A DNA stretch of 64,000 nt from Eledone cirrhosa (Eukaryota), in assembly GCA_964016885.1 (NCBI GenBank), contig OZ024741.1, forward strand, positions 181,846,001-181,910,000. The letters are read 5' to 3'. The position numbers were made by a program, and so were the translations under genes. Numbering within the stretch: position 1 is the first letter of the stretch; the number at the start of each line of letters is the position of its first letter. Shown here in pieces: positions 20,146 through 62,701 of this stretch. The notes under the pieces were generated by a model. It was not told the DNA's origin and did not search any database. It saw only the letters and a program-made list of their open reading frames with translations.

Positions 20146-21950
20146 AGAGTATCGGTGCTGAAGATCGTTTAGTGTTTCCTGGCAATATACACATAATTAC
20201 AAATTTCATTACTAGAGTAGATCTGGTTTTGAATAGCATCTGCCTCAATGTTTTTGAAATTCTTCCTTTAGTTCCGTTCTTCATAAACAACAGAGATGAA
20301 TAAGGTTAATTTAGCTTTGGAAGCAAATGCATACATTTCTGTTAACTAACTACTATCAATGTCAGTAAGATATCATTCCTGGTGCTGTATTATGTGGCTT
20401 TCCTGATTTTGCTATGTAATTTATGAGATTTACTGTTTACGGTTATTATCTCTACTGCAGTTTAATCGCTCTGTAGAAATCCCTGTATGGGCGTTCATGT
20501 TGTAATTAGCTCCGGGTGGCGGTCAAATAATCATACATAGATAACAGGACTTTTTTTAAAAATTCATAGGGTATAATTCAATTACCCACGATTCAGCTGT
20601 CATTGAAGAACATTTTGCTGACATATTTATTTATATTAGAGATATGAAAAATCGAAGATAAGGTTTTCCTGTTTTTTCTTCCATTTTCCAGACAAAACAA
20701 CAACAACATCAACAACATAATCCCCCAATTAAATCATGCCAATTGATTATTACCTTTCGAACAAAACCAATATTACTGGACACTATATATTGGAATTCTT
20801 AGAAATGGACAGATGTACAGATGCAATTTCGTTATAATACAGAAGTGCAACAATGCTCCAAGGCTTACCTCTCCACCTTTATTTTCGTGCTAATAGATGG
20901 CCACTACTTAATCTGTTCAATCTTAACTCTTTTCACAATTTATTAAAGATACTTATGTTGTCAATTCATAACAGTAAAATGTGAAATCTACATTAATATA
21001 AATCTTATTTTGGCAATGACATTTTGGAAATACCTTTATTCTGTACTTGTTTTGTTTATTTATTCATTTTTTTGGTTTTTCTCTTGAACATCAATTTTAA
21101 TATTTGAACAGCTAGTATGTTAAAGTAGAAGAGGTGTAGCAAAAGCAGTTATCAGATCGATGACGAAAGAATTAGACATTTCTCCTAATATATTGTAGTT
21201 GGTTATTCATTTATACAATGACTACCATGCCCCATAATATATGAGATTGGGAAATGAAATTTGGTGACATTTATAGCCTATCCTAAGGTAATAAGCAATT
21301 TAATTGAAGAAAAATGTCTTCAATTAAAGTAGTGTGGAGGCTCAGATCACTGGAGGATTGCCTCTTATTTTTGATACAGCATATATATGATACAGTATGC
21401 GGATTTATTATTTATCAATAAACGGCTTGTTCAGTACTGAGTATATCGAAATAATTCGAAAACAGTTTTTCCCTCGTCGATATTCTGTCACCTAGAAGTT
21501 AGGATATAGCAATCTTCATATAAAGCCTCAGCTTTTACGATTACACAACTCTGCTATATTTACTTCACTGAAGTAAGTTTGTAATCAACTTGAGAAATAA
21601 AAGAAATAGATTTACATACACTCAGCATACACAGTATTTTCTATTGCCACAGCAATGTTTAGCAAACAATTGATTAACTATGCACTGATGTAATATTTCA
21701 GAAAACTAGAAAGCACTATAAATGCAAACGGAACAACATTAACATCACACGATGTCACTTTTATCTTTCCACTGAATATCAACATTGTGGACGTTCACCC
21801 TGCTGTCGTAAATAGGTAGGAAAGTATTTCTATATATCACTTAGGAAACTCAGAAAGGGAGTGTATATACATACATACATGTACACACATACATGTACAT
21901 ACATACATACATACATACATACATACATACATACATACATACATACATAC

Positions 21951-22564
21951 ATGGTGGTGGCTGCCAACTCGTTTTCGAGTACGGCCACTACTTTATATCC
22001 ATGTAGGAGAACCCCTACCAATGCGCTGAACGAGCGTGACTTTTTAGTCCAGCCAGCGACTTGAAAACTCTGGTACAAACACTACACCTGTGACAATTAT
22101 TGACACATAGTGCTGGGCCCATGGTACCATGTGACGACAAGTGCAGAGAGATCTCCAGATATAAAGCAATTCCTGTGCTGTGAAGCTTTTATAGTGAGCA
22201 AAGGCACTGCACAAAGCCAGTCCCACTCTCTTAACCAAGATGATATTTACCAAAAAGAAGAACAATTCAACATCATTGGATACCATCAGGGTTGCAGGTG
22301 TTATATCAGAGTTTTCCTTCTCCTAGAATTCTGCCTTGACAAAGGCTAAGGGGTCATCTCTCCCGGTGATTTTGGATGGCTATTGACTCTTAAGAGCCCC
22401 TTTGCCTTTTGACAGGTTTTGTTTTTAGTCCTGCAGGATGTCCAAAGCCACCCTCCTCACCAAGAAACCTTGGTGGGGTTGCCAGTTTAGTCGCCAACGA
22501 CCCGACCATGAGACAGGTTGTACTGGGATACATGTTACCAATAGCACCAACTGGTGACCTGACA
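21951..22564 (-). mobile_element. ~610-bp RTE-derived non-autonomous retroelement, copy 1
   Basis: Near-identical to the copies at 28256, 30147, 47263 and 47907; flanked on both sides by (CATA)n. Confidence 0.85.
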
Positions 22565-22618
22565 CATACATACATACATACATACATACATACATACATA
22601 CATACATACATACATACA

Positions 22619-23243
22619 TACATAATATAAAAGAGTACTGGTGGAATGTTCCAGTAAAAATCCCTATAAAATGCAAGCATAACAGACCAGATATTATGAT
22701 ATGGGATAGGGAGAAGAAAACATGCACAGTAGCGGAAATTAGCTGCCCAGCAGATGCTAATATAATATCAAAGTTAAGCGAAAAGGAGAATATTTATGCA
22801 GAACTGATGAGAAATCTGCAGATACTCCACCTTGATTATACCTTCAGATTAATGCCTGTGATTATTGGGGCACTGGGATATGTTAGTAACTGCCTCAATA
22901 CAAATCTTGAGAAGCCGGGCTTCACAGGAAAAGAAAGAACACAACTAGTTAGGAAATTACAAGTACAATCCATTAATGGAACAGTAAAAACATGTAAAAC
23001 ATTCCAAAAAGTTTGCATCTAATAACTGCATATACACATATAGAGATACTAAGCATATATACACATGCACACATACAACTCAAAACATCCATATCTACAC
23101 ATGATGTATGCAGACCTGCATACATATCTACCTAGTTGATGTTGTAGAGACTCTTGTGTCTATGTTAGAGACTCTTGTGTCTATGTTAGAAACCGACTCT
23201 CTCTCTATTGGCAAAAATTTGTGAAATTATAAAACCAGAAGAA
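22619..23243 (+). mobile_element. 5'-truncated RLE (R4/Dong-like) non-LTR copy
   Basis: RPDIMIWD...VAEISCP endonuclease motif; matches 26752-27368; ends CCAGAAGAA|CATAC. Confidence 0.85.
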
Positions 23244-28010: not shown

Positions 28011-28255
28011 ATACATAAATACATACATACATACATACATACATACATACATACATGATGGCTGCAAACTCTGCTAAGAGTATTGCAATCGCTGGTCAGA
28101 TTACTGAAAATAGTGCTACGGCCAGCCACACGAACCTGTAACAGATCCTGTACAAGCTTTGAAGGTTTTTTAAGTGGCAAAAGGCCTTGCGCTATACACA
28201 CATAATACATACTTGAAATATACACACATACACACACACATACATACATATATAC

Positions 28256-28859
28256 ATGGTGGCTGCCAACTCGTTTTCGAGTACGGCCACTACTTTATAT
28301 CCATGTAGGAGAACCCCTACCGATGCGCTGAATGAGTGTGACGTTTTAGTCCAGCCAGCGACTTGAAAACTCTGGTACAAACAATACACAATTATTGACA
28401 CATAGTGCTGGGCCCATGGTACCATGAGACGACAAGTGCAGAGAGATCTCCAGATATAAAGCAATGCCTGTGCCGTGAAGCTTTTATAGTGAGCAAAGGC
28501 ACTGCACAAAGCCAGTCCCACTCTCTTAACCAAGATGATATTTACCAAAAAGAAGAACAAGTCAACATCATTGGATACCATCAGAGTTGCAGGTGTTATA
28601 TCAGAGTTTTCCTTCTCCTAGAATTCTGCCTTGACAAAGGCTAAGGGGTCATCTCTCCCGGTGATTTTAGATGACCATTCACTCTTAAGAGCTCCTTTGC
28701 CCTTTGACAGGTTTTTTTTTTAGTCCTGCAGGGTGTCCAAAGTCACCCTCCTCACCAAGAAACCTTGGTGGGGTTGCCAGTTTAGACGCCAACGACCCGA
28801 CCATGAGAGAGGTTGTACTGGGATACATGTTACCAGTAACACCAACTGGTGATCTGACA
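28256..28859 (-). mobile_element. RTE-derived non-autonomous element, copy 2
   Basis: Same sequence as copy 1; CATA-repeat flanks. Confidence 0.85.
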
Positions 28860-28907
28860 TACATACATACATACATACATACATACATACATACATACAT
28901 ACATACA

Positions 28908-28938
<31 letters not shown>

Positions 28939-30146
28939 TAAAGTCTAGAGCATTATATATGACTACAATAATCTTTTTATTATGTTTTATTATTCTATTA
29001 ATGCTTTAAATTTTCAGTTGGTATTCTGCTATTTTTTGGTAATTTGGTATTTTGTGGTATTTTGGTATTTTTTGGTATTTTGGTATATTTTTAATGTTTT
29101 ATTTTATTTTTATTATTTCTTTTGTTTTTGCATGATTTAGTTAATGCTGAAAATGCAGCACCCATACAGCATTCCATACTGCCGGTAGGAGTGGAAGATG
29201 TTATCTCAGACAAGAGACTTAAAGATGAAACTGTTTTTTTAGCAGAATGATATTATGGGTGTTAAGTCTATTGTACTAGCCATGTAGATCAGTCATGTCA
29301 AGCCAGTACTCGATGCAAATGTAGTATCTCTCAATATGGCTACAAAGTAAAGCAAGCGAGGCAATGGAGCAGCACGTTTTTGCCTCTTAAAACCAGGCTA
29401 ACGTAGTCTACATATGTTTCCAACATCTTCGCTAAACAACCAGAAGAATTCTTAAAGGAATGAAGAGCAATGTCAAACTGTTATAAACATTTCTTTGCTA
29501 TCACAGGAGAGTATGTTACATCATGAATAAGAAAAATAAACGAAGCGACGAAGAAGACTCTATGTGGTCGTTCTATCAGCTAAAGATAGAAGTGGAATTG
29601 CCTCAATGACCTGCAAAGCTATATAAAAACTGGACAATTCATTAGTAGATGTATAAATGAACGGGTTGGTCATGACTGGAAAACATTTAATCAAAGGTTT
29701 GCTCAATCCCAGCTGATCTGTCACAAAGCAAGAAGAGTAGCAGTCGAGTCCAAGAAAACATGTACCTGGCCATTCGACCTGCTAGAAATAGTCACCAAGT
29801 CGCCTCTAAATCACACATATAAAAAAGACTAGACTATGTCCAAAAAGGAAACATGACATAACCAAGAGTGTAAATAATTTAAAGTAAGTAGAACTGCATA
29901 ACATACCATAAAATACATATGACTACAATAAAAGAGGCAGTAAAAAGAGCCAGCAATATTCTTGATGATGTGACTGTGAAAGTCCAGAAACGTTGTATGA
30001 ATTTTAGACTCTTGCTTCAAACGAATTATAGAAGCCTTACTAGAATATACGAAAATGTTCTAATAAAGATATTGAAACTTGAATATAGTTGTGTCGTTAA
30101 AAACACATGTATAAAAGGAAGGCTTTCCCCATACATACATATATAC

Positions 30147-30759
30147 ATGGTGGTGGCTGCCAACTCGTTTTCGAGTACGGCCACTACTTTATATCCATGT
30201 AGAGAACCCCTACCGATGCGCTGAACGAGTGTGACTTTTTAGTCCAGCCAGCGACTTGAAAACTCTGGTACAAACACTACACCTGTGATAATTATTGACA
30301 CATAATGCTGGGCCCATGGTACCATGTAACGACAAGTGTAGAAAGATCTCCAGATATAAAGCAATGCCTGTGCCGTGAAGCTTTTATAGTGAGCAAAGGC
30401 ACTGCACAAAGCCAGTCCCACTCTCTTAACCAAGATGATATTTACCAAAAAGAAGAACAAGTCAACATCATTGGATACCATCAGGGTTGCAGGTTTTATA
30501 TCAGAGTTTTCCTTCACCTAGAATTCTGCCTTGACAAAGGCTAAGTGGTCATCTCTCCCGGTGATTTTGGATGGCCATTGACTCTTAACAGCTCCTCTGC
30601 CCTTTGACAGGTTTTGTTTTTAGTCCTGCAGGATGTCCAAAGTCACCCTCCTCACCAAGAAACCTTGGTGGGGTTGCTAGTTTAGTCGCCAACGACCCGA
30701 CCACGAGACAGGTTGTATTGGGATACATGTTATCAGTAGCACCAACTGGTGACCTGACA
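30147..30759 (-). mobile_element. RTE-derived non-autonomous element, copy 3
   Basis: Same sequence as copy 1. Confidence 0.85.
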
Positions 30760-31116
30760 TATATATACATATACATACATACATACATACGCACACATTC
30801 TCTCTCTCACACACACACAAACACACATACGTACGCACACACACATATATATATATATATATGTGAATCTAGACACATCTGCGTAATCTATCTGGGATGC
30901 ACTTACTCTTTATGCACAACATAATGTACGTGTTTATATCCCTTGTATCACGAGTGAGTTTGCGTGGCATTTAAATTGTGTGTGAGCATGTGTATATGTG
31001 TGTGCGTATGTGTATAAGTGTGTGTGTTTTTATGTATGTGCGTGTATTTCAGTACGGATTCAACATTGTGCGTGCATGTAGATTTACGTATAGTGTGTAC
31101 CCACTGTTATTATTAG

Positions 31117-38421: not shown

Positions 38422-38513
<92 letters not shown>

Positions 38514-38523
38514 AACAAGTATG

Positions 38524-38619
38524 ACCCCAACGGCAGAGATCAAGCCGTTTCGACGGCTATTTCTGGACTAAATAAGAACTTTTAGCCAAGTAAATAAATA
38601 GCCGAACTTCTCAGGGGGT
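38524..38619 (-). ncRNA. Type I hammerhead-like motif, non-canonical core
   Basis: ACCCC-CTGAGAA-G..CGGCTATTT...AAATAGCCG.C-GAAA-CGGC ttgatctct GCCG-TT-GGGGT. All three stems form; the core reads CUGAGAA rather than CUGANGA. Confidence 0.6.
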
Positions 38620-39388
38620 ATTTCCTTATATGGGAAGATAGTAATTGTCAAAAGGATTGGTCAAAAATTTGTTGTAAAGACAGATGAATCTATCATGGCA
38701 TTTGGTGGGCGGTAGGGGTGGCTGAACTTGCCGGTAGAACAAAGAGGGAGTGGGGGAAACCCAGTCAAGCGTTGAAAGTGAAATCTATACAGTAGATTCT
38801 AAGGATAGTGTATAGAAGGTCGAAAAAAGTGTACTGGAGAAGAAGAGGGCGGGGGAGGGGGGGGGGGGGGTGAACGAATAGGTAAATCGAAAGGGAGTAA
38901 AAAAAAACCATTATAAAAATAAGGAAATAAATATGTAAAAAACAATTTCTGGTTACTACTCCATTTCTACAATCACCAATTTCTCATTGGTATTGTTAAA
39001 CTATAGAAAAGTTTAATAGGTGGAGAGTAGGAAAAATACTAAATACGAGATTGTAGTGAATTAATTTTATAAAGCCGGTTTAGCAATACCAATGAGAAAT
39101 TTGGTGATTGTGGAAATGGAGTAGTAACCAGAAATTGTTTTTTACATATTTATTTCCCGCCTCCTCTTCTCCAGTACACTTTTTTCGACCTTTTATACAC
39201 TATCCTTAGAATCTACTGTATAGATTTCACATTCAATGCTTGACTGGGTTTCCCCCACTCCCTCTTTGTTCTACCGGCAAGTTCAGCCACCCCTACCGCC
39301 CACCAAATGCTATGATAGATTCATCTGTCTTTACAACAAATTTTTGACCAATCCTCTTGACAATTACTATCTTCCCATATAAGGAAAT

Positions 39389-39484
39389 ACCCCCTGAGAA
39401 GTTCGGCTATTTATTTACCAGGCTAAAAATTCTTATTTAGTCCAGAAATAGCCGTCGATACGGCTTGATCTCTGCCGTTGGGGT
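39389..39484 (+). ncRNA. Second-arm copy of the hammerhead-like motif (GAAA changed to GATA)
   Basis: Inverse copy of 38524-38619. Confidence 0.5.
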
Positions 39485-39575
39485 CATACTTGTTCCTATT
39501 ACCCACTCTACTACCCTAAGTATTGAGCACTTTGGTGCGTTATGGTCTATCTGGTTCCTTACCACAATTCCTTCG

Positions 39576-39609
<34 letters not shown>

Positions 39610-40927
39610 CACATATATTGCGCTTATACGTGATCTTCTTTTATGCAGACGACTAGGATCATGTTAGCCACACAGAAGACGTTCAACTTCTAATGGATTG
39701 CTTCTCGGCAACCAGTTATGAATTCGGGCCTACAAAGACAGTGTTGAACTGCCAGTATTCGGCCGGAAAGCCATATATTTCACCATCCATATCAGTCAAA
39801 GGGTAAACCTTGAATGTTGTGGATACGTTAGTCTACCTGGGTAGTACTCTCACCAGTAACGGCAGCCTTGATGAAGAGATAAGGTACCAGTTGTCAAAAG
39901 CTTCCGACGCTTTTGGTAAACTGGAGAAATGCCTGTGGTCACAGTCAGATATCAGTGTACTCAAGAAAGTTGAAATGTATCAAGCATGTGTGCTTCCAGC
40001 CTTGCAGTATGGAAGTGAGACAGGTAACATACTGTGGGCGTATCCCCTACCTAGAACATTTCCACCAATAATGCTTACGCTCTATCTTCAAGACTCATGA
40101 AGGTCTGATACACCAGGCACTGATGAGCTGCAGCGGGCCTGTGGGTCAAGCATCGAGACAATGATCATGAAACAGCCTCTTCGGTGGTCAGGTGATATAG
40201 TACGCCTAGAGGACAGCATACCACTAAACAAATATTGTATGGGGAACTGTTGCAAGGCAAACGCCTGCAGAGTAAACCACACAAATGCTATAAAGACTAC
40301 CTAAGAGATACCATGGGGGTCAACATCAACACCAAAACATGGGAATACCTTACAACAGACACAGAGCTCAGTGACGAAGTCTAATTGACATTCGAGATAA
40401 AGAATTTGAACAGAATATGAGGGCCTGTGCTGAAGTTATGTGTGGGATGTTAGTCCACTCCTCCCAAAATAAGGTTTGAAAGAAACACTTTCCTGTGAAG
40501 GATGCTGACGTGTATGTATGTCAAAGACTAGACTTCTAAGCCTTAACAGACGCCACACTCATAGAAATAATACTTTTCAGTACCCCATGCACCTTGAGTT
40601 TGCATGCTTCATCTGTACAAAAGTGTGTCACTCTGCAAGTGGGCTAATAATTGTTTCTACCTTTTGGCACAAGGCCAGCAATTACCCAGTGTATTACTGG
40701 TGGTACCACAAACTACACCATGCTAATGAAACTCAAGCAAGTCAGAAACTCACCTGCACACTGTGTATTGTGATATATAAGTAACGTATTGGCTTGATGA
40801 GTCATCGAAGGCAGAATCAATGACAGCAACACCAATAACAGGTTCTTGCCAATGCCTGTTAGTTATTCTTTTTTGTTCTAAGTGATCGAACTCGGAGACA
40901 AGTTGGCTTCCTCTATGTATGTATGTA

Positions 40928-41474
40928 TCTCTTTCTCTTAATTTTGAGTATATTTTTTTGACCGGCCACCTTTCTGGTGGCAAGGTTGTAAAAGAAAAGA
41001 AATTGTCATCCCTTGAATCGCAAGAATGTTTTGCAAATTTTGAAGGTGCCAGCTATCGCAGCCATATGTAGACTATGAATTAGGGAGCTGCGCTCTTTGT
41101 CCGCAAATCCAAGTTCAGTCATACTTTGGTCTAAGCGGGTTGGTATATAACCCGTATCTCCAATAATGATGGGTATGAAGCTAAAGGTGTATCTTGGATA
41201 CTGGATTTGTAAACTCCTCATCAATGGTCCGTAGATGTCCTCCTTCTCCTGTATTTTTCTGACAAGTTTTACATCAAGAGGACAGCTGATCCCCACAACA
41301 GAACACGTTTTCAATGTGTGGTCCCAAACAACAATATCAGGCCGGTTGTGCTTTAATTTTGGTGGCAGTTTTTATTTTCAGGTTCCACCAGTATTCCTTA
41401 GTGCCATCTGTCTCAATATATTCTTCCTCGTTTGTTGTTAATTTTGTTTTCCGAAGTGCGTTCCAGATGGTTCT
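40928..41474 (-). mobile_element. 3' fragment of a second RLE (R4-like) family
   Basis: EYWWN..RPDIVVWD..VGISCPLD..IPIIIG..KICKTFLRF; 3' end GAGAAAGAGA|TACATAC. Confidence 0.8.
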
Positions 41475-41555
41475 ATGTATGTATGTATGTATGTATGTAT
41501 GTATGTATGTATGTATGTATGTATGTATGTATGCATGTATGTATGTATGTATGTA

Positions 41556-41851
41556 TCTCTTTCTCTTAATTTCGAGTATATTTTTTTGACCGGCCACCTT
41601 CCTGGTGGCAAGGTTGTAAAAGAAAAGAAATTGTCATCCCTTGAATCGCAAGAATCTTTTGCAAATTTTGAAGGTGCCAGCTATCGCAGCCATTTGTAGA
41701 CTATGAATTAGGGAGCTGCGCTTTTTGTCCGCAAATCCAAATTCAGTCATACTTTGGTCCAAGCGGGTTGGTATATAACCCGTAGCTCCAATAATGATGG
41801 GTATGAAGCTAAAGGTGTATCTTGGATACTGGATTTGTAAACTCCTCATCA
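41556..41851 (-). mobile_element. Shorter 3' fragment of the second RLE family
   Basis: Near-duplicate of 40928-41223, flanked on both sides by (TATG)n. Confidence 0.8.
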
Positions 41852-43326: not shown

Positions 43327-43733
43327 GAGATGACCCCTTAGCCTTTGTCAAGGCAGAATTCTAGGAGAGGGAAAACTCTGATATAACACCTGCAACCCTG
43401 ATGGCATCCAATGATGATGACTTGTTCTTCTTTTTGGTAAATATCATCTTGGTTAAGAGAGTGGGACTGGCTTTGTGCAGTGCCTTTGCTCACTATAAAA
43501 GCTTCACGGCACAGGCATTGCTTTATATCTGGAGATCTCTCTGCACTTGTCGTCACATGGTACCATGGGCCCAGCACTATGTGTCAATAATTGTCACAAC
43601 TGTAGTGTTTGTACCAGAGTTTTCAAGTCGCTAGCTAGACTAAAAAGTCACACTCGTTCAGCGCATCGGTAGGGGTTCTCCTACATGGATATAGAGTACT
43701 GGCCGTACTCGAAAACGAGTTGGCAGCCACCAT
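43327..43733 (+). mobile_element. 5'-truncated RTE-derived non-autonomous element
   Basis: Matches the 3' ~400 bp of copy 1; (TATG)n on both sides. Confidence 0.85.
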
Positions 43734-44029
43734 GTATGTATGTATGTATGTATGTATGTATGTATGTATGTATGTATGTATGTATGTGTGGGCCATGTAT
43801 GTGTGTATGTATGGGTGTATGTGTGTGTATGTATTTATGTATGTATGCATGTATGTATGCATGTATGTATGCATGTGTGTATGTATGATTTGCACCTTCT
43901 ATACTCACAATAAAATTATGTTTATATATCCATATTAAATATTTCCTCACCTCATTTCTTTACTTTGCCGGGTATTAATATATATTTTACCTGGGAATGG
44001 AGCTTAACAAGAATATTCTTCTAGTCACT

Positions 44030-46725: not shown

Positions 46726-47150
46726 GTATACGTACATACATATATGTATACAGACGTACAGTAGTATGTATATATATATATATATACATGCACACATATA
46801 TATATATATGCACGTATCGGTTTACTGAACATTTATTATAATGCTCGGTTTGTTTGTTTGTAAACAAACAAACAGCCCGAATTACGCCGTACAGTGTTTA
46901 GGCAACCACGTCACCTTTTTGTTCAATACTGACACAGGAACGATGTGTCAGTGTTTACAAACAAACAAATCGAGCATTATAATAAATGTTCGGTAAGCCG
47001 ATAGGTGCATATATATATATATATATATGTGTGCATGTATATAAACCGATACGTGCATATATATATGCGTGCATATATATATATGTGTGCATGTATGTAT
47101 ATATATACATACTACTGTACGTCTGTATACATATATATATGTACGTATAC
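46726..47150. repeat. Imperfect inverted repeat / MITE-like foldback with ~85-bp spacer
   Basis: 46726-46866 is the inverse of 46952-47150 (cagacgtacagtagtatg; ttattataatgctcg.tttgtttgtttgtaaaca). Confidence 0.7.
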
Positions 47151-47196
47151 ATATACATATATGTGTGTGTGTGGGTGTGTGTGCGAGAGTTATATG

Positions 47197-47230
<34 letters not shown>

Positions 47231-47262
47231 TGTATGTATGTATGTATGTATGTATGTATGTA

Positions 47263-47831
47263 TGTACAACCTGTCTCATGGTCGGGTCGTTGGCGACTAA
47301 ACTGGCAACCCCACCAAGGTTTCTTGGTGAGGAGGGTGACTTTGGACATCCTGCAGGACTAAAAACAAAACCTGTCAAAGGGCAAAGAAGCTCTTAAGAG
47401 TCAATGGCCATCAAAAATCACTGGGAGAGATGACCCCTTAGCCTTTGTCAAGGCAGAATTCTAGGAGAAGGAAAACTCTGATATAACACCTGCAACCCTG
47501 ATGGTATCCAATGATGTTGACTTGTTCTTCTTTTTGGTAAATATCATCTTGGTTAAGAGAGTGGGACTGGCTTTGTGCAGTGCCTTTGCTCACTATAAAA
47601 GCTTCACGGCACAGGCATTGCTTTGTATCTGGAGATCTCTCTGCACTTGTCGTCACATGGTACCATGGGCCCAGCACTATGTGTCAATAATTGTCACAAG
47701 TGTAGTGTTTGTACCAGAGTTTTCAAGTCGCTGGCTGGACTAAAGTTACATTCGTTCAGCGCATCGGTAGGAGTTCTCCTACATGGATATAAAGTAGTGG
47801 CCGTACTCGAAAACGAGTTGGCAGCCACCAT
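47263..47831 (+). mobile_element. RTE-derived non-autonomous element, slightly 5'-truncated
   Basis: Same family as copy 1. Confidence 0.85.
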
Positions 47832-47906
47832 GTATGTATGTATGTATGACGCTGGCGGCGTCAGGGCTGGTTGGAGAAGACGGCATGCGGTCGGCTGCCG
47901 CTTCTA

Positions 47907-48515
47907 TGTCAGGTCACCAGTTGGTGCTACTGGTAACATGTATCCCAGTAAACTTGTCTCATGGTCGGGTCGTTGGTGACTAAACTGGCAACCCCACCAA
48001 GGTTTCTTGGTGAGGAGGGTGACTTTGGACATCCTGAAGGACTAAAAACAAAACCTGTCAATGGGCAAAGGAGCTCTTAAGAGTCAATTGCCATCCAAAA
48101 TCACCGGGAGAGATGACCCCTTAGCCTTTGTAAAGGCAGAATTCTAGGAGAAGGAAAACTCTGATATAACACCTGCAACCCTGATGGTATCCAATGGTGT
48201 TGACCTGTTCTTCTTTTTGGTAAATATCATCTTGGTTAAGAGAGTGGGACTTGCTTTGTGCAGTGCCTTTGCTCACCATAAAAGCTTCACAGCACAGGCT
48301 TGCTTTATATCTGGAGATCTCTCTGCACTTGTCGTCACATGGTACCATGAGCCCAGCACTATGTGTCAATAATTGTCACAAGTGTAGTGTTTGTACCAGA
48401 GTTTTCAAGTCGCTGGCTAGACGAAAAAGTCACACTCGTTCAGCGCATCAGTAGTGGTTCTCCTACATGGATATAAAATAGTGGCCGTACTCGAAAACGA
48501 GTTGGCAGCCACCAT
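47907..48515 (+). mobile_element. RTE-derived non-autonomous element, full-length
   Basis: Same family as copy 1; (TATG)n tail. Confidence 0.85.
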
Positions 48516-48748
48516 GTATGCATGTATGTATGTATGTATGTATGTATGTATGTATGTATGTATGTATGTATGTATGTATGTATGTATGTATGTGTGTGTA
48601 TGTGTGTGTGTGCTTGTGTAAACCTGCTTAAAAGCTTCCAATTAATCTGTCCCTGTTGCAGCAGATTTAAGCCATAGGAATTGAAACATGTCCAAAAGGA
48701 TCGAACATAGTACTGAAATAGAATAATTCTGGTTTTACTACCACATAC

Positions 48749-51695: not shown

Positions 51696-52050
51696 GTTTG
51701 CTTAAGCTATTCGTTTCATATCTACATGGTTTGGTAGGGGAGTGGTGATCACACGGCATGGCACTTTCACCAAAGACCTGTGAGTTAAATTTGAAGACGG
51801 AGACTCTGAGGAAGACCATCGAAGAATCCGTTCATGTGTCGCCCCGTTTAACATCATAAGCTGTGCACGGGTGCCTTTAGCGGATCCCATTCCATCGCAA
51901 GCATTTGAGCCAGGTTTCCGGTCATAGTATAAATTTCTCCTTTTCTTCAACAAGTCTCAAAAGTCCTAAAAATATCATGGTCACTTCCCTTCCTTCTCTG
52001 ACAAATCCATACAAATGAATCTGTTTCTTATGCATCATAAGATACGTTAA

Positions 52051-54176
52051 ATATTGTTATACTTTGGGAGGGTCATGTTGCCAATAAGAAACACACGCAC
52101 CAGTTGCTTTCACTTCAATTTATTATATATTTATAAATTTATAAATTTACAAATCTACAAACTTATAAATTTCTGGTTGGTTGGTTGGTTCTACAACCAG
52201 ATAGTTGTTTATATATAGTCATAGTCCTTTCGTCACACACTCTGTGACCTCTTCAGTGACTGGGGATTCCTTTCTTCGTTTCTGTGCCTTTCTTTTCTTC
52301 TATCCTACGCCATTTTGTTTCTGTGTGTGTGTTGTGTGCTCAGTTTGCGCATGCGCCACATCCGGGTGTCTGTGTGTGTTTGTGTTCATTTATCTATTTG
52401 TTTATTTATTTATTTATTTATTTATTTATTCTTGGTTGGTTGTTTGTTCTATGTGTGTGTGTGTTTTCATTTTGTCCTGTGTGTGTTTTCATTTTGTCCT
52501 TAATTGTAAGTTGTTTGTTCTATGTGTGTGTGTGTTTTCATTTTGTCCTTAATTGTAAGTTGTGATGTTGCTGTTCTACTCATATTTTCTATTTAATTTT
52601 GGTTTTAATTCTTTTATGCTTACTGCCTCTGTAATTTGCCTAAACATTGCGTCTTTTCTGTGTGTGGATTCTATTTTTATTTCTATGCTCTCTAATCTAC
52701 CCCTGTGTTCTATCTTAGCATGTTGGTAGAGCACAGATGATTCTTTATTATATTGGAGGTCTCGCCAGTGTTCATTTATTCCTTCCCCTATACTACGAGC
52801 TGTCTCACCTATGTACACTATATTTTTGTTTCTACATTGTCCTTCAGTACATCTTATGCTATACACTACATTTCTAGTTTTACAGTTAATATGGGGGCTT
52901 ATTTTACAGGTTATACATTTCTTATCTATACATGAGGGTCTTTGGAACGGGTATGTCTTGCTAATAAGTGTTTTTACGGAGGTACCAGGTCTTTCTACTA
53001 TCTTAATATTGAGATTATGTTTATTTAGGGCCCTTCTAATTTTGTAGGCTAGTTCGCCTCTAGGGGTTGTATTGATGAACATTACACTCTGGTATTTATT
53101 GCTATCATACCATGAGTTTATTCTATTGACCTTGTTCCTAGTTCTTTCTATTCTATTCCAAAATTTGCTCCTATACAAGGGGCAGGTCCCATTTATGTCA
53201 TTATTTACCATTTTTTCCCATTTGGTTCTGGCTCTTTTATACACTCTGATTCTATCTCTCTGATTGTAGCCAGAGAACTGCATACGGTGGATGAAGTGTT
53301 GTATGTGTCTCTCTAGTTCTTCGGGGTTGCACATGCGGGACACATTTCTCATCACCCGTACCAAATCCGCAATCAGTATGTTGATTTTGGTATGGTCCGA
53401 AATGGCCGAGTTTCGGTGGATCAGATGTTTGGAAGTCATGGGTTTGGCATAATGGGAATGGAGGATTTGTTTTTGGTTGTTAATGGTATCTAACCAGAGC
53501 TCTGTGTCTAGTACAGGTAATCGATGGTTGGGGTGTCTACTTGGGTAGTCTATAGTAACTCTAATGCTCTGGTGGATGGAGTTTGCTATTTGCTGGATGC
53601 TTTCCATTGTGTTTTTCTCTAGTTCCTGACTGTTCTTTAGTGGGGGTGTCTTAACTACGATGTTTATATCATCTACGTAGCGGGAGTACATTATCAGGGT
53701 TAAGCTGTCCTCTAATTGTTCATTAAGTTTTTGTTTAAGTCTACTGTCCCACCATACCATGAATAAGTTAGCTATGTCGCCTGCAATGCTAACACCAATG
53801 GCTGCTCCTTCCTCTTGGGCATATGTTTTACCATTAAATTTGAACATATGCTCCTGAAGGGTTAATTTTATGCTGGCCCCTACCGCATGTGCAATCATTT
53901 TCTTCAGTTCATCGTGGTTTTCGGGTGTCCGTATGGCTCTGGTCCACCCGTTCCATCTATCTGTGTGGGTTTTCTTGGCCATTGAGGTAATGGTCGGTGG
54001 TCTGCCTCTTGCTGGTCTTGTTGGGCACAGGTTGCTAAGGTCATAAGTGTCTAGGTAACTATTACTATGGGTAAGCTTAAGTAGAAGTCCCAGCTCACTG
54101 GTATCAATCCCACGGAACTCAACCTTGCTCTCGCTGATCATTTCTACGCATTTCTCCACAGCAAAATCCACGTCAA
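52051..54176 (-). mobile_element. Inverted, 5'-truncated copy of the Penelope-like element (RT C-terminal part, GIY-YIG, pLTR)
   Basis: Reverse complement of 56391-58516; open 531-aa frame 52576-54171. Confidence 0.93.
52217..52261 (-). ncRNA. Minimal type I hammerhead ribozyme in pLTR
   Basis: AGTCA-CTGAAGA-GGTCACAgagtgTGTGAC-GAAA-GgaC-TA-TGACT. Confidence 0.7.
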
Positions 54177-54203
54177 CTGGTGCGTGTGTTTCTTATTGGC
54201 AAC

Positions 54204-57200
54204 ATGACCCTCCCAAGTATAACAATATCGGTTTCAACACACGATTTCAGATAAAGAATCTTGCTAAACAAATTCAGAAACGAAATATCGTAAGCCTTAG
54301 CCAGGCTAACAAGATACTGAAAACCACCATGTTCTGTTGTCTACGAAAAACCATAACATCTCGACAACTACGCTTCATAAAACTGTGCACCACTTCTAGA
54401 ATCTACACCAACACCATCAATACCGACGTTAGAAGATTACAACTCACCAAAAAACAAGCAGATAGGCTAAAACGAACTTTAATTCTAAACATAAAAAAGA
54501 AGATCTATAGAGAATTAAGTCATCAAGAAAAACTAAAGCGTAACCTAATACAAGAAATAGCTAAAATCACCACACCAGCAGAAAAAATAATATTTATAAG
54601 CCTTATACGCCCCGAAGAACAGTACATTACTCAAGAATGTGATAAGCACTTTAACAGAAAACTAAAGTGGCTTAAACAGGCAAAGCTAAATCGGGATACT
54701 ATAGAGTATACCAATAGATATCCCGACAAAATTGACGGTATCAACATGGGCGACACCTCATTATCAGCAGAGTTCAACAACGAAAATACCAACATTTATG
54801 GAAACACGGAAATAGATAATAATGAAATGTCTGTGTTACGTCTGCCACCCAAATTTGCGACATTCAAGAAGGTAAATATGATTAGATGTCTGTCAGATAT
54901 AGAAAAATCATTTACAAAACTACGCTGGAGCATCAAAAACAAAAGCAACAATATACGCACACACATATACAACACACATCCCAACAACAACAGACACACA
55001 GACACAAACAACAATAACAACAACAACAACAACAACAATAGCAACATACCCAGATACAACAACAACAGACACGCAGACACAAACAACAATAACAACACAC
55101 ACAACAACGATAACACACACGGAGACAACAATAACAACAACACACACATCAACAACAACAACAATAGCAACATACCCAGATACAACAACAACAGACACGC
55201 AGACACAAACAACAATAACAACACACACAACAAGGATAACACACACACACACGGAGACAACAACAACACACATCAACAACAACACACATCAACAACAACA
55301 ACACACACGCATTCAATGCCTCTCACCACCACCACAATCTTAACAAACACACAGACACAGAAAACAAGTAATGACAGTAGCACAGAAATCAGAGAAATAA
55401 GAGAAAGTAATAGGATTAAAAGGAAAAGGAGATGGGAGACTAAGGACAAAGAGAATAACCAAGACGAACACACAGACACACAAAATAGGGTAGATAACAA
55501 CATTGAGCCAGTGGAAAGAGACAGGAGTAATTATGAGAGACATAGAAACAACCATGAGGCTGTTGGTGGAAATAGAAATAGAAACAACACAACTAACAAT
55601 AATAATAGCACTAGTACACATAAAGCAGCAGCCTGGAACTCTCCGTTTTATAACCCCTCCGATAAATCATTCGACCTACGACGAGTCCACGCCACGACTT
55701 TGCCATTTAACAAACGCACGCAGTTGCCGTCGCAGGTCGATGAACAAACAGAAGCACAATTTAGTATAGCTAAATCCGAACTTAGAAATATTATAGAACA
55801 GTATAGCAAGAAGCATAATAGAATAGAGGCCCAGCAACTGGGAGAAGAATCTGCAAATGGCTTGCGTAAGCTCATGCAGCGCTCGCGTAATGGAGAGATA
55901 GCATGTTTTCCAACAGACAAGTCTGGCAGAATGTCGGTTGACAGCCTGCCAAACTACATCCAGGCAATGCAACCCCACATCACTAACACAAGAGAGGTAA
56001 CACCACAGGAGCATGAGGATAGAGAAAAAGCCCTCAATGTCCATATGGTGATGTGGACGAATATAATGCAGCCCAACAAAAGGACTGCCAACAACTTCCA
56101 GGCCTGGAACAATGACGTGCCGGCGTTGTATGGGCTTCGAAAAGACCATAAAACGGGCTGGGACCCTGTCGCGGGACCACCAACACGGCCAGTCTGTGGG
56201 GCTAACATTGCTAGTAACTACAGGCTGTCCTACTTCCTCTCCCTGATCATACGCCCCATCATTGAGATGTCCCCAGATGTGTGTGACAGCACGGAGGACC
56301 TCCTCAGCAGAATCGGCGCGGGTAACCGATCTTGGGACCTAACAAACTGCATAATAGGCAGTATGGATGCTGTGTCCCTGTATCTATCTATTGACGTGGA
56401 TTTTGCTGTGGAGAAATGCGTAGAAATGATCAGCGAGAGCAAGGTTGAGTTCCGTGGGATTGATACCAGTGAGCTGGGACTTCTACTTAAGCTTACCCAT
56501 AGTAATAGTTACCTAGACACTTATGACCTTAGCAACCTGTGCCCTACATGACCAGCATGAGGCAGACCACCTACCATTACCTCAATGGCCAAGAAAACCC
56601 ACACAGATAGATGGAACGGGTGGACCAGAGCCATACGGACACCCGAAAACCACGATGAACTGAAGAAAATGATTGCACATGCGGTAGGGGCCAGCATAAA
56701 ATTAACCCTTAAGGAACATATGTTCAAATTTAATGGTAAAACATATGCCCAAGAGGAAGGAGCAGCCATTGGTGTTAGCATTGCAGGCGACATAACTAAC
56801 TTATTCATGGTATGGTGGGACAGTAGACTTAAACAAAAACTTAATGAACAATTAGAAGACAGCTTAACCCTGATAATGTACTCCCGCTACGTAGATGATA
56901 TAAACATCGTAGTTAAGACACCCCCACTAAAGAACAGTCAGGAACTAGAGAAAAACACAATGGAAAGCATCCAGCAAATAGCAAACTCCATCCACCAGAG
57001 CATTAGAGTTACTATAGACTACCCAAGTAGACACCCCAACCATCGATTACCTGTACTAGACACAGAGCTCTGGTTAGATACCATTAACAACCAAAAACAA
57101 ATCCTCCATTCCCATTATGCCAAACCCATGACTTCCAAACATCTGATCCACCGAAACTCGGCCATTTCGGACCATACCAAAATCAACATACTGATTGCGG

Positions 57201-58018
57201 ATTTGGTACGGGTGATGAGAAATGTGTCCCGCATGTGCAACCCCGAAGAACTAGAGAGACACATACAACACTTCATCCACCGTATGCAGTTCTCTGGCTA
57301 CAATCAGAGAGATAGAATCAGAGTGTATAAAAGAGCCAGAACCAAATGGGAAAAAATGGTAAATAATGACATAAATGGGACCTGCCCCTTGTATAGGAGC
57401 AAATTTTGGAATAGAATAGAAAGAACTAGGAACAAGGCCAATAGAATAAACTCATGGTATGATAGCAATAAATACCAGAGTGTAATGTTCATCAATACAA
57501 CCCCTAGAGGCGAACTAGCCTACAAAATTAGAAGGGCCCTAAATAAACATAATCTCAATATTAAGATAGTAGAAAGACCTGGTACCTCCGTAAAAACACT
57601 TATTAGCAAGACATACCCGTTCCAAAGACCCTCATGTATAGATAAGAAATGTATAACCTGTAAAATAAGCCCCCATATTAACTGTAAAACTAGAAATGTA
57701 GTGTATAGCATAAGATGTACTGAAGGACAATGTAGAAACAAAAATATAGTGTACATAGGTGAGACAGCTCGTAGTATAGGGGAAGGAATAAATGAACACT
57801 GGCGAGACCTCCAATATAATAAAGAATCATCTGTGCTCTACCAACATGCTAAGATAGAACACAGGGGTAGATTAGAGAGCATAGAAATAAAAATAGAATC
57901 CACACACAGAAAAGACGCAATGTTTAGGCAAATTACAGAGGCAGTAAGCATAAAAGAATTAAAACCAAAATTAAATAGAAAATATGAGTGGAACAGCAAC
58001 ATCACAACTTACAATTAA
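54204..58018 (+). pseudogene. PLE polyprotein: RT + Cys-rich linker + GIY-YIG endonuclease
   Basis: LPPKF, TDKSGR, LYGLRKDHK, TRPV, SMDAVSLY, GAAIG, RYVDDI, LPVLD, CIDKKCITC..C, VVYSIRC..YIGETAR..EH..EA..LN. A 1-bp deletion follows the ATG (cccaag vs cccaaag in the other copies), and two TGAs occur at 56549 and 56558. Confidence 0.9.
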
Positions 58019-58305
58019 GGACAAAATGAAAACACACACACACATAGAACAAACAACTTACAATTAAGGACAAAATGAAAACACACACAGGACAAAATGA
58101 AAACACACACACACATAGAATAAACAACCAACCAAGAATAAATAAATAAATAAATAAATAAATAAACAAATAGATAAATGAACACAAACACACACAGACA
58201 CCCGGATGTGGCGCATGCGCAAACTGAGCACACAACACACACACAGAAACAAAATGGCGTAGGATAGAAGAAAGGAAAGGCACAGAAACGAAGAAAGGAA
58301 TCCCC

Positions 58306-58350
58306 AGTCACTGAAGAGGTCACAGAGTGTGTGACGAAAGGACTATGACT
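58306..58350 (+). ncRNA. Minimal type I hammerhead ribozyme in pLTR
   Basis: Same fold as 52217-52261; predicted cleavage after 58345 (CUA). One bulged G in stem II; stem III has only a 2-nt loop. Confidence 0.7.
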
Positions 58351-59002
58351 ATATATAAACAACTATCTGGTTGTAGAACCAACCAACCAACCAGAAATTT
58401 ATAAGTTTGTAGATTTGTAAATTTATAAATTTATAAATATATAATAAATTGAAGTGAAAGCAACTGGTGCGTGTGTTTCTTATTGGCAACATGACCCTCC
58501 CAAAGTATAACAATATCGGTTTCAACACACGATTTCAGATACAGAATCTTGCTAAACAAATTCAGAAACGAAATACTTTAAATATTTATAGTTTAAGTAC
58601 AAATAAACAATTTTCGGGAGAAAAGACAGTCGATTATATTGACCCCAGTACATGACTGGCACTTTATATTGTCGACCCCATAAGGTTGAAGGGCAAAGAT
58701 GAACTCAGAAAATAAAGTTGCGGAAGAAATACCACAGTTATTTTGGTTTGACGTGCTAAAAATCCACCGCATATGAGAAAATTGAAATACGTGTTGATTT
58801 GATTTATGCGAAAGTGTTTGAATAATGTTTTCGGTGAGAGAAATTTAAACTCTGTAAATGTTGTTTATCTTATTCAATAAACAAATTTGAGAAAGCACTG
58901 CTAGTAGTAGTTTCTAGTGAATACCTACTTATTCTCAACTGCTTACTACTTAGTTACTATGTGATGTGGTAGCTATGTTTATCAAAACATTACATGTCCG
59001 TA

Positions 59003-59165
59003 AGGCGGTGAAATGGCATAGTCGTTAGAACGTCGGATAGAATACTTTGAAGTAACCATTCCGACTCTGTTCTCTGAGTTCAAATCCTGGCGAGGTCAAG
59101 TTTGCCTTTCATCGGTTCATGGTCGATAAAAAAAAGTACCAATCAAGTAATGGGGTCGATTCATC
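59003..59165 (+). mobile_element. tRNA-derived SINE
   Basis: aggcggtgaaatggcatagtcgttag...gagttcaaatcc..gaggtcaagtttgcctttcatc. Confidence 0.7.
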
Positions 59166-60133
59166 CTCTATTTCTCTTCTCACGTCCTTTCTCTCACCCT
59201 CTCTATCCTTCTTTGGAAGAACTCTACTGTATTCAGGCCTGGAGAGAAGTGGGATCCACCAGGTTTTAAAAAATTCCCTAGAAACGCTGTATGTCAATAT
59301 GGTGCCCCCTACGATTTCTCAGGAGTTCTGTGTCCATACCATACCATACATGTCCATACAGTGTGAATTATATATGAAATTGAATCAGGATACGCCCTAT
59401 ATTTCGAGTGAAATAGGATAAATGAAACCCCATAAATTCAAACATTTACACAGTATAACATTCAATCATCCTGTGTACGAAGACTTAATCCATATTTTGT
59501 TTGTATTCTATTGCTCGTATTACTGTGTCACTTTGATCTGTTTTTTGTGTAATTTCGTTTACATAGTTAAATATACCTGTTTCAACACCAGAGAAATTAC
59601 TTAATCATAGACTAAATTGCAGTGGAAAAGGAATATATATTTCATCAGCTATCTCTTAACAAAATTGGAGTTGACAATACAATGTATGATGCAAGTTGTC
59701 TGCGCATGTGTGCAGCTTTACTCAGAAATTAGAAAACGTGCATCCACAAAAGATATATTATAGATACATGCATATTAGATACTCACAGATGTGTGCGTGT
59801 ATGTGTTTGTGTGTATGTGCATTTATATTTACATACACATTCATACACATGTATACACATACATGCACATGCATTCACAATCACATGTATGCATGCACCT
59901 ATACATATATTATATATATACATATACACACGGGTGCGCGCATCCCTCCACACACACTCACACGCATATATATATATATATATAATAATAATGAGTTGAT
60001 GGACCCAGCATATTTATCAATGCCAGGACCGGTTGTATCTTAGCGTACTCAATAGGCAATGTAAGATACATTCCCAGAGTATACACATAGTTATTCCCTT
60101 CAATACAACACACGTAAAACGGGTGCCTATAAA

Positions 60134-60257
60134 GGTTCCCGGACTCGAGTTTCGGCCGCACTTAATGCATCAGTAAGCACTTAATGCACTGCACCATCCG
60201 TCTGCATATATTATGCAACAATGCACAATCGGCTTATGCGGCTTCATCAGCGGGTAT
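60134..60257 (-). ncRNA. Type I hammerhead ribozyme with palindromic stem III and long loop II
   Basis: CCCG-CTGATGA-AGCCGCA...TGCGGCC-GAAA-CTCGAG-TC-CGGG (GUC cleavage triplet). Confidence 0.8.
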
Positions 60258-60284
60258 CACCTAATCAGCAACCAATCGATCGAC

Positions 60285-60324
<40 letters not shown>

Positions 60325-60330
60325 GGAAAA

Positions 60331-60373
<43 letters not shown>

Positions 60374-60377
60374 ATAT

Positions 60378-60460
60378 AGAAATGGCTTCTACAGGACTAG
60401 ATTTCCGGACTGATGATTCCCTCCGAATGAAACAGTTCTAGTCCTGTAGAAAACATTTCT
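60378..60460 (+). ncRNA. Hammerhead-like motif in a long hairpin (PLE pLTR-like remnant)
   Basis: TTCTACAGGACTAGA..CTGATGA-TTCcctccGAA-T-GAAACAGT-TCTAGTCCTGTAGAA. Confidence 0.55.
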
Positions 60461-60536
60461 AATTTATATATTTATGCTCTGCTATGTATTGAGTACCTTA
60501 CTTACTGTGGTTACCCCCCCCCATTGAACCCCAGGT

Positions 60537-60600
<64 letters not shown>

Positions 60601-60605
60601 GTAAA

Positions 60606-60640
<35 letters not shown>

Positions 60641-60649
60641 AAAGTCTGT

Positions 60650-60850
60650 CTCGAGCTCGGAGGCTCATTAGGCCGGTACTAATCCTTTGAAAGGTTAAAC
60701 GGCCAGCTACTGGTGGTACTTATTTTTCAGTATACTGGAGCAACGTGAAATGAAGTGTTTTGTTCGAGAACACAACACACAACCAAGTCCAGGAATCGAA
60801 CCCAGAACATTATGATTGTAAGTCCAACACCCCTTACCACTAGGCCACAT
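60650..60850 (-). mobile_element. tRNA-derived SINE, second family
   Basis: Minus strand gtggcctagtggtaagg (A box)...gggttcgattcc (B box), then gtgttgtgttctcgaacaaaacacttca. Confidence 0.7.
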
Positions 60851-62079
60851 GCCCCAACTATATATTAAGGATCAGAACAGCCGACTCGTGAAAGAAATAT
60901 GAAATGGTTGAGTGAGTATTCCGCAGTCACATGTACATTTAATGTAGTTATCAAGGGGATTCAACGTGACACAAGGCGTGACAAAGTTGTCTCTTTGAAT
61001 TACAGGTGCAACTCACTGTTTAATACGTTCCCTCGTATTTTTAAACCCAAACGTACGGATACCTCCATTGTTTTGAAGAGCAGCTATGACTTAAATATCT
61101 TAATCTCCGTTACCATTGAAGAGAAATTGCTGTGTCATGATTTTATTCTAGTTTTGTTTGCTGACCGAAATATGTAATTAATATAGCGTTCTTTTTTTAC
61201 ACCCGGATTAATCAATTAATCCTTAGAACCGGCATTTATAGCTATTTTATGAAGTGTTAAGCTGATGAAGCACAAATCTGCATCAAATCTATGCCTAGAT
61301 ATCAGTATACGTGAAGATAATTATGATAGAATCCAATAATTGTATAGAATTAATCTAGAGCCCTATATTTAAATAATAAAATCTTCCATTCTATCTTTAA
61401 GTTAATATTTCAGAAGACCATGTAAACATGCGGACACCTAGTAAACTAGAAGTATTATATATTTATATAATAAGGAGTGTTTTTAGGTGAGGAAAATAAA
61501 AACTGAAGTGAAAATTGGTAATTATATAGAAAAAGTGTAATAAGTAAATGGAGCAAAGTGAATGAACATAATATATTACTTATAAGAATAGCAAAATAAA
61601 TTAATATTTTTAGGTTAGTTGAAGGGTAAGTATATAAAACATGAATTTCCCTTGAGAGTCGAAGATATATGTAGGAACAAGACTCTATTGAAAAGCAAAA
61701 TGTCTACGATACATTAAACATAAATTGCACAAAACTTTCCTGTATTACAGCCCCACGTTATACCCTAACGGATAGTACGATCTATACGTGGATATTTTAC
61801 GTCTCGATGTGGGACCAGCGAACGTTTCCACGAACCAAAGTATCATTTTCCTGTCTTCCTCCGGTTGCAACGTTTTTTGAAATATCCAGTTCTGCGTTTA
61901 CAGATTGACTTTGTTAGTTTCAGAAGATCCCGTTAAGGGTGAAAGCAGCGATTCTTTGCTTAAACTTTAATCTGTTATTTTAATAAATATTTGCTCTACG
62001 GTTCTTATATATTTGATATATATTTATCCTTATCGAGCCCTCTTTGGATTTTAGTCTTCAAATTTATTATTATTACTAC

Positions 62080-62131
<52 letters not shown>

Positions 62132-62134
<3 letters not shown>

Positions 62135-62693
62135 TTTCTGAATTTGTTTAGCAAGATTCTTTATCTGAAATCGTGTGTTGAAACCGATATTGTTATACTT
62201 TGGGAGGGTCATGTTGCCAATAAGAAACACACGCACCAGTTGCTTTCACTTCAATTTAATTTATTAAATATTTATAAATTTACAAATTTATAAATTTCTG
62301 GTTGGTTGGTTGGTTCCACAACCAGATAGTTGTTTATATATATATAGTCATAGTTCTTTCGTCACACACTCTGTGACCTCTTCAGTGACTGGGGATTTCG
62401 TTCTTCGTTTCTGTGTCTTTCCTTTCTTCTATCCTACGCCAGAAAATGGCGTAGGATAGAAGAAAGGAAAGACACAGAAACGAAGAACGAAATCCCCAGT
62501 CACTGAAGAGGTCACAGAGTGTGTGACGAAAGAACTATGACTATATATATATAAACAACTATCTGGTTGTGGAACCAACCAACCAACCAGAAATTTATAA
62601 ATTTGTAAATTTATAAATATTTAATAAATTAAATTGAAGTGAAAGCAACTGGTGCGTGTGTTTCTTATTGGCAACATGACCCTCCCAAAGTAT

Positions 62694-62701
<8 letters not shown>
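62132..62701. mobile_element. 570-bp palindromic non-autonomous derivative of the Penelope-like element (two inverted pLTRs)
   Basis: 62132-62441 (minus) and 62447-62701 (plus) both match pLTR 58255-58570; hammerheads at 62346-62390 (-) and 62498-62542 (+); (TA)n on both sides. Confidence 0.9.

Follow-up and report, generated by a model that had tools for sequence, protein, structure and literature searches.

Endonuclease-bearing (EN+) Penelope-like elements (PLEs) have been described as canonical units with inverted pseudo-long terminal repeats (pLTRs), a 5'-truncated inverted copy and a one-sided tail of 30-40 bp (PMC3846280; Fig. 2 legend of PMC8557442), while the origin of these inverted repeats and of the one-sided tail has been stated as open (PMC8557442; PMC11167929). 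In vitro, the Poseidon element PAc of Anolis carolinensis cuts and extends both target strands, with two internal reverse transcriptase (RT) starts that bracket the tail, and has been modelled as a dimer; whether both starts are paired within an insertion, and how many RNA molecules take part, is not addressed in the part of that text consulted here (PMC11167929). Here, two head-to-head insertions in a 64,000-nt stretch of the genome of Eledone cirrhosa (GenBank assembly GCA_964016885.1, contig OZ024741.1, positions 181,846,001 to 181,910,000 of the forward strand; hereafter the window, to which all position numbers refer) have been analysed together with related copies genome-wide. As judged from motifs and from homologues that do not carry PLE names, both are insertions of a very abundant Neptune-like Penelope family. 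We propose, with a rough probability of 0.56, that such insertions arise when both strands of a (TA)n target are nicked by the element protein and two cDNAs are primed at two fixed positions, some 59 nt from each other, on what is probably a single RNA molecule.

Self-comparison of the window identified the large element as an inverted copy (52051-54176) that is the reverse complement of 58516-56391 over 2126 nt, with 12 mismatches and 0 gaps, followed by a forward copy that it meets at a 3-nt microhomology. The small element of 570 bp consists of two arms that do not differ over 251 nt, separated by one nucleotide. In each element, one arm runs to a short end (S, ...GTATAACAATAT, at the equivalent of 58516) and the other to a long end (L, ...CAGAAACGA(A/T)ATA), with the following features.

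52042-52055, plus strand: left copy of the 14-bp target site duplication (TSD) of the large element, with one mismatch to the right copy; its last 5 nt overlap S.
52051-54176, minus strand: inverted arm of the large element, stopping at S, with the 3' part of the open reading frame (ORF) and the pLTR, equivalent to 56391-58516 (99.4% identity).
52217-52261, minus strand: hammerhead-type motif of the inverted arm, mirror of 58306-58350.
54174-54176, unstranded: inversion junction with the microhomology CAA.
54174-58575, plus strand: forward arm of the large element, stopping at L and 5'-truncated below the putative start site and ribozyme (self-comparison, sequence).
54204-58018, plus strand: ORF with RT and C-terminal GIY-YIG, a broken copy; RVT_1 below the Pfam cut-off.
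58251-58259, plus strand: putative transcript 5' end, AAAATGGCG, and junction hot spot of the family (from junctions and G-started arms).
58306-58350, plus strand: minimal type I hammerhead-type motif, CTGAAGA...GAAA, with a 2-nt self-complementary loop III (by eye; stem II by folding).
58512-58516, plus strand: S (AATAT), putative RT start site 1 (end positions across the family).
58517-58575, plus strand: 59-nt tail that copies the ORF start, its L end being putative RT start site 2 (self-comparison, end positions).
58573-58586, plus strand: right TSD copy (flank comparison).
62132-62441, minus strand: inverted long arm of the small element, with tail 62132-62190, hammerhead-type motif 62346-62390 and a left flank of (TA)n.
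62442, plus strand: 5'-terminal non-templated G of the short arm (family: C), likely a cap copy.
62443-62701, plus strand: forward short arm of the small element, with hammerhead-type motif 62498-62542 and a right flank of (TA)n.

The head-to-head palindromes with outward tails that a preliminary description of the window had reported at both loci are thus borne out, as are their opposite overall orientation, their different internal junctions and the diagnostic difference GAAAGAACTA versus GAAAGGACTA. The asymmetric end-points common to both elements also hold, with the correction that L lies 59-60 nt beyond S rather than about 55-59. Equally, the 570-bp form does contain two hammerhead-type motifs, but these lie on opposite strands, so that one transcript holds only one of them in sense.

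This layout of one long and one short arm is itself ordinary and already published. Shared with the canonical EN+ PLE unit are the head-to-head copies, the one-sided tail copied from the ORF start, the variable TSDs, the microsatellite targets, an Asn-rich insert and copy numbers in the thousands (PMC3846280; PMC8557442). On the other hand, the tail measures 59-60 nt instead of the published 30-40 bp, and while it is described as optional or often one-sided in these papers, its one-sidedness is here a counted rule. With PAc, the family shares an AT-rich target, of which both strands would be cut and extended, and two internal RT starts around the tail, putative in the present case; PAc has a hammerhead in its pLTR, where the present family has a hammerhead-type motif. 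PAc belongs to a different clade, and its RT starts lie 111-118 nt into the ORF, compared with about 26 and 85 nt for the putative starts here (PMC11167929).

The rule was counted across the genome. The 27-mer just upstream of S has 26,134 exact matches in 3.0 Gb, of which 11,327 run past S with CG. Among 185 distinct head-to-head elements, some of them picked by junction and 18 through a query with the long end (three of these 18 are probably segmental duplicates), 176 combine one L with one S end (L+S), while 4 are S+S, 1 is L+L and 4 carry an odd end. The first 30 loci, biased toward long ends, were left out of the end-blind count, where two sets gave L+S in 51 of 54 elements (P about 1e-12 against 50:50). 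Tabulated genome-wide, the end-points are not random, as, of the 370 ends of the 185 elements, 345 coincide with S or L to the nucleotide and 338 are followed by (AT)n. By eye, 37 further matches without a matched partner comprised 11 two-armed copies (all L+S), 10 lone L arms, 12 lone S arms and 4 unclear cases, and four of six regions fetched as possible L+L pairs or partners gave no L+L. TSDs of 12-16 bp were seen in the large element of the window and in four of the fetched genomic loci, which are labelled by L-numbers (L063, L145, L186 and L268); a TSD is not definable inside pure (TA)n and is visible only where the target is impure. Raw reads from two other DNA runs contain opposite-strand joints in the pLTR, which come mostly from one restriction site and confirm presence only; a step in restriction-site-associated DNA (RAD) read depth near 58252 was not used, as divergent subfamilies could produce it.

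How the two ends are chosen is partly indicated by the ends themselves. At L063, the final bases of the L end are replaced by the target's own letters. Of 168 L ends, 27 have the sequence ATATA, whereas all four internal read-through copies of the same sequence read AAATAT. Taken together, these observations make the starts look position-fixed, with short and optional pairing to the target. The longer ATAT tracts at 58351 and 58437 do not serve as ends, and folding around S and L gave a weak signal (z -1.9) that does not explain the choice of site.

Inner junctions also have a preferred position, with 287 of them within 14 nt of 58251-58255 and 26 at a control site further 3'. Arms that start with G-A4-6-TGGCG number 237 and T-started arms 53, against 3,736 with templated AC. 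Since these G-started arms sit at junctions, with any partner, and only 3 of 70 fetched loci continue into the element's own upstream sequence, 58251 is likely the start of the pLTR transcript and the non-templated G a likely copy of its cap, as far as genomic sequence can tell. Cap copying is a known property of retroelement RTs; our literature searches gave no support for it. The sequence of the start site, whose G is followed by a run of 4 to 6 A, we take to resemble a YY1-type motif. An internal promoter within the pLTR has been described for Penelope of D. virilis (PMC2377424). Across 79 hot-spot elements, the G is found on the L arm only in 23, on the S arm only in 19, on both arms in 10 and on neither in 27. 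At two loci, additional sequence has been observed: about 300 nt of unrelated sequence captured between the arms of a hot-spot palindrome (L151:1200-1830) and about 150 nt of ATC-rich filler ahead of a G-started short arm (L157).

The two arms of an element share their haplotype and probably their template. Compared arm with arm over 166 elements, common polymorphic sites were concordant in 775 of 788 cases and discordant in 13, where 278 discordant cases are expected by chance; whole haplotypes matched in 65 of 79, compared with 16 at random, and none of the 166 elements had arms of clearly different subfamilies. Of the private changes, 49 were common to both arms and 138 confined to one. Three elements carry clusters of sense-strand A>G changes in both arms, with 16 shared and 3 one-arm sites in L130, 6 and 0 in L184, and 7 and 0 in L231 (scored columns). 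Each has its own pattern common to both arms, and none of the three is edited in one arm only. In the S arm of L130, 44 of 52 changes from the nearest copy are A>G and 8 are other changes. Genome-wide, the L130 pattern has, with up to 2 mismatches, exactly two matches, its own two arms, and the edited ribozyme-core pattern has five, all inside the three elements. Such A>G clusters are a signature of ADAR editing (PMC5625713) and are here likely RNA-editing marks. As the S arm of L130 extends further 5' while its L arm alone has the tail, neither arm contains the other.

The edited stretch of the three elements reaches from about 250 to 40-150 nt upstream of S, and the last 40-90 nt are unedited, perhaps through protein cover or because edits there block use. 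Shared variants as a whole had also seemed enriched in A>G (31 of 50), but this was discarded as an independent sign of editing; the excess is due to the edited elements and disappears without them.

We consider it highly probable that two primings at two fixed sites take place and, once this is granted, likely that one RNA molecule serves both. That the two target strands are primed at a pair of fixed sites offset from each other, as already suggested in the preliminary description, is supported by the L+S rule, the TSDs of 12-16 bp and the lone arms at either site. Integration would begin with staggered nicks 12-16 bp apart made by the element protein, each of which would provide a primer. 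One cDNA would start at the S site and the other at the L site, perhaps on two halves of a dimer, and trailing synthesis would displace the leading cDNA. Each cDNA would then halt at its own point or continue to the capped 5' terminus and run off, after which the cDNA 3' ends would be joined through microhomology or end-joining. Twin priming of L1 elements is comparable in that the other target strand, too, serves as primer for cDNA synthesis on the one RNA, and the resulting inversion is joined by microhomology. There, however, the second site is internal and variable and the pieces do not overlap, whereas here the two starts have fixed positions close to the 3' end and the same sequence is copied twice.

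Beyond this stands a wider proposition, to which we give slightly less than even odds: that double priming is obligate, with a protein dimer that reads one RNA two times, from fixed starts with a spacing of about 59 nt. The tail would then represent the distance between active sites, ADAR edits would act as single-molecule barcodes and copied caps would map the promoter. The idea of double-strand priming is largely anticipated by the in vitro work on the anole PLE (PMC11167929). Literature searches, which covered few subscription papers and none of the PLE reviews of 2005-2006, found neither twin priming nor edited barcodes nor a cap G in PLEs; single-RNA double priming and the cap-marked hot spot likewise did not turn up in the searched literature.

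Several observations weigh against the reading of two primings on one RNA. Nine of the 185 elements break the L+S rule (4 S+S, 1 L+L and 4 with odd ends), and in vitro the start site was alike on both strands (PMC11167929). The editing barcode is limited to three elements; the depletion of upstream G expected of ADAR is borderline (8 of 63 versus 29 of 113, P=0.054), and outside these elements the shared private changes have no excess of A>G (6, versus 7 T>C, of 41). Agreement of arm haplotypes alone fits two RNAs from one source locus equally well. A>G changes confined to one arm occur at the 3 sites in L130 and, in the hot-spot set, number 9 versus 1 T>C. At L150:1130-1760, a G-started short arm stands head-to-head with an inverted arm of a second repeat family, and (TA)n flanks the pair on either side; this single case suggests that one insertion may draw on two templates. 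The lone arms may have been left over from two-armed copies, and the start site and cap at 58251 are deduced from genomic copies only.

The second repeat, apparently non-coding, ends in (TA)n and has two 3' ends about 36 nt apart (L113:316-800, L149:1945-2395, L106:1950-2430 and L258:85-510). Possibly it represents a different, non-autonomous family of PLEs; a hammerhead core was not found in it at L113.

Best placed among the alternatives, if still unlikely in our judgement, is twin priming in which each protein subunit uses an RNA of its own, both RNAs come from the same source locus, and an asymmetric complex imposes one L and one S start. It accounts equally for the L+S rule, the TSDs and the agreement of haplotypes, and the one-arm A>G sites and the mixed-family insertion at L150 fit two templates. 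Yet the A>G clusters would then have to be fixed in the source locus, while the pattern of L130 has no third copy and three edited elements each carry their own pattern in both arms; the absence of arms of clearly different subfamilies from all 166 elements also speaks against it.

The lengths of the arms bear on a different scheme, which we regard as improbable: the cDNA started at the L site copies itself by folding back, the second arm is cut back to S by the endonuclease or by repair, and later central deletions produce the spacer. Fold-back followed by central deletion is familiar from work on palindrome repair. The scheme resembles published ideas of self-priming and endonuclease resolution (PMC3846280; PMC8557442), over which the present data favour two primings. 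It would yield identical arms including edits, correlated arm lengths (rho 0.40 and 0.59 were found) and near-perfect centres, which occur in excess, with 10 of 50 end-blind elements having arms within 20 nt of each other in 5' reach, where 2.8 are expected. In the remainder, however, the L arm is longer in 23 and the S arm, against expectation from fold-back, in 17. Furthermore, full G-started S arms have L-type partners of a mere 20-85 nt (L138, L145 and L149), and retention of their terminal G would need one-sided deletions that spare the last base. Difficult to reconcile with fold-back are also the lone S arms, as common as lone L arms (12 versus 10 of the 37 singles), and the longer ATAT tracts left unused as ends; in PAc, S-site cDNA without L-site cDNA is indicated, albeit for another family (PMC11167929).

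Independent templates whose arms were later homogenised by gene conversion are, in our view, very improbable; although long inverted repeats can convert and 49 private changes are common to both arms, 138 remain in one arm, and each of the three edited elements carries its edits in both.

The preliminary description had also regarded the 570-bp form as a possible MITE-like partner (MITE, miniature inverted-repeat transposable element), that is, a unit amplified from one or few palindromic masters, and at least 11 dispersed copies with exactly the same junction, as well as 40 of 40 scored candidates that span the junction query, could be taken in its favour. This proposal is not supported by the copies themselves. 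The exact loop of the small element occurs as both isomers, with the tail on either side (7 versus 5), and in five haplotypes; loop type and haplotype are not associated (32 of 146 pairs, 30.8 under the null, P=0.40), and the 79 hot-spot elements have 45 oriented loop types. Identical junctions recur equally at the control site, which has a near-palindrome, and in the edited copies the S arm has sense A>G instead of T>C, which speaks against single-pass copying of a hairpin transcript. A clonal fixed unit was not found, and the ends, unequal by 59 nt, derive from a retroelement pLTR, so that amplification from masters can hardly be maintained. Shortness, lack of coding capacity, high copy number and terminal inverted repeats or a hammerhead-type motif are shared with MITEs, with MRC1-type non-autonomous PLEs (PMC8557442) and with non-LTR retrozymes (PMC7229834); clonality and tandem ribozyme repeats are not, and here the ends are unequal and the centre is probably new in every insertion. 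With both isomers, scattered haplotypes and no link of loop to haplotype, the 570-bp form is non-autonomous and recurrent, and it appears to arise afresh each time as a run-off product, for which both cDNAs would have to reach the end of a short transcript with its start at 58251. Artefacts that sequencing or assembly could create by fold-back, to which long inverted repeats are prone, can practically be dismissed in view of unmirrored flanks, a TSD, 12 differences between arms and the opposite-strand joints in raw reads of two other DNA runs.

The assignment to a Neptune-like family is based on the ORF, in which the motifs YVDD, DKSG and a YSI...YIG core with conserved R/H/E/N point to an RT with a C-terminal GIY-YIG endonuclease. 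The Pfam search of the ORF returned RVT_1 only, below threshold, and homologues are 24-44% identical, none with a PLE name; one of them, P0007, carries PF01541. A CX2-5CxxC linker and a CCHH endonuclease at the C-terminus, features of Neptune and Nematis PLEs (PMC8557442), are present as CIDKKCITC, C-TEGQ-C inside the core and two downstream His. The ORF of the window copy, which is without the upstream promoter region, is disrupted by a frameshift directly downstream of its ATG and by a stop codon at 56549-56551, and the pLTR overlaps the ORF start, as 54174-54287 equals 58461-58575. In the N-terminal part of the ORF, an Asn-rich (AAC)n insert with a tandem repeat (about 54950-55330) has been observed; comparable Asn-rich inserts occur in Adineta PLEs (PMC3846280). 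The pLTR motif, with core, stems I and II and a self-complementary loop III as read by eye, fits the description of the minimal hammerhead ribozyme (PMC4209133), with stem II recovered by folding; Rfam at the gathering threshold had no match over the window, the hammerhead-type motifs included.

With regard to the origin of the inverted repeats and the one-sided tail, this family contributes counts and natural barcodes that separate candidate mechanisms. For the in vitro PLE system it predicts that both arms are copied from the same RNA, that every target receives one L and one S start, and that G is incorporated opposite the cap. If double priming is indeed obligate, thousands of genomic copies constitute a read-out of the integration reaction. 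Most insertions are, moreover, hairpins from the outset and so likely ADAR substrates. Heavy editing has been reported for lizard Penelope RNA (PMC5625713).

Elsewhere in the window, another repeat family of about 700 bp, with copies 90-97% alike and in both orientations, is found at 21869-22624, 28200-28938, 30130-30859, 43327-43841, 47126-47848 and 47905-48620. Furthermore, 38509-39499 and 40914-41851 contain two repeat pairs, one of 345 bp, inverted (96.8%) and enclosing roughly 1 kb, and one of 310 bp in direct orientation (97.4%).

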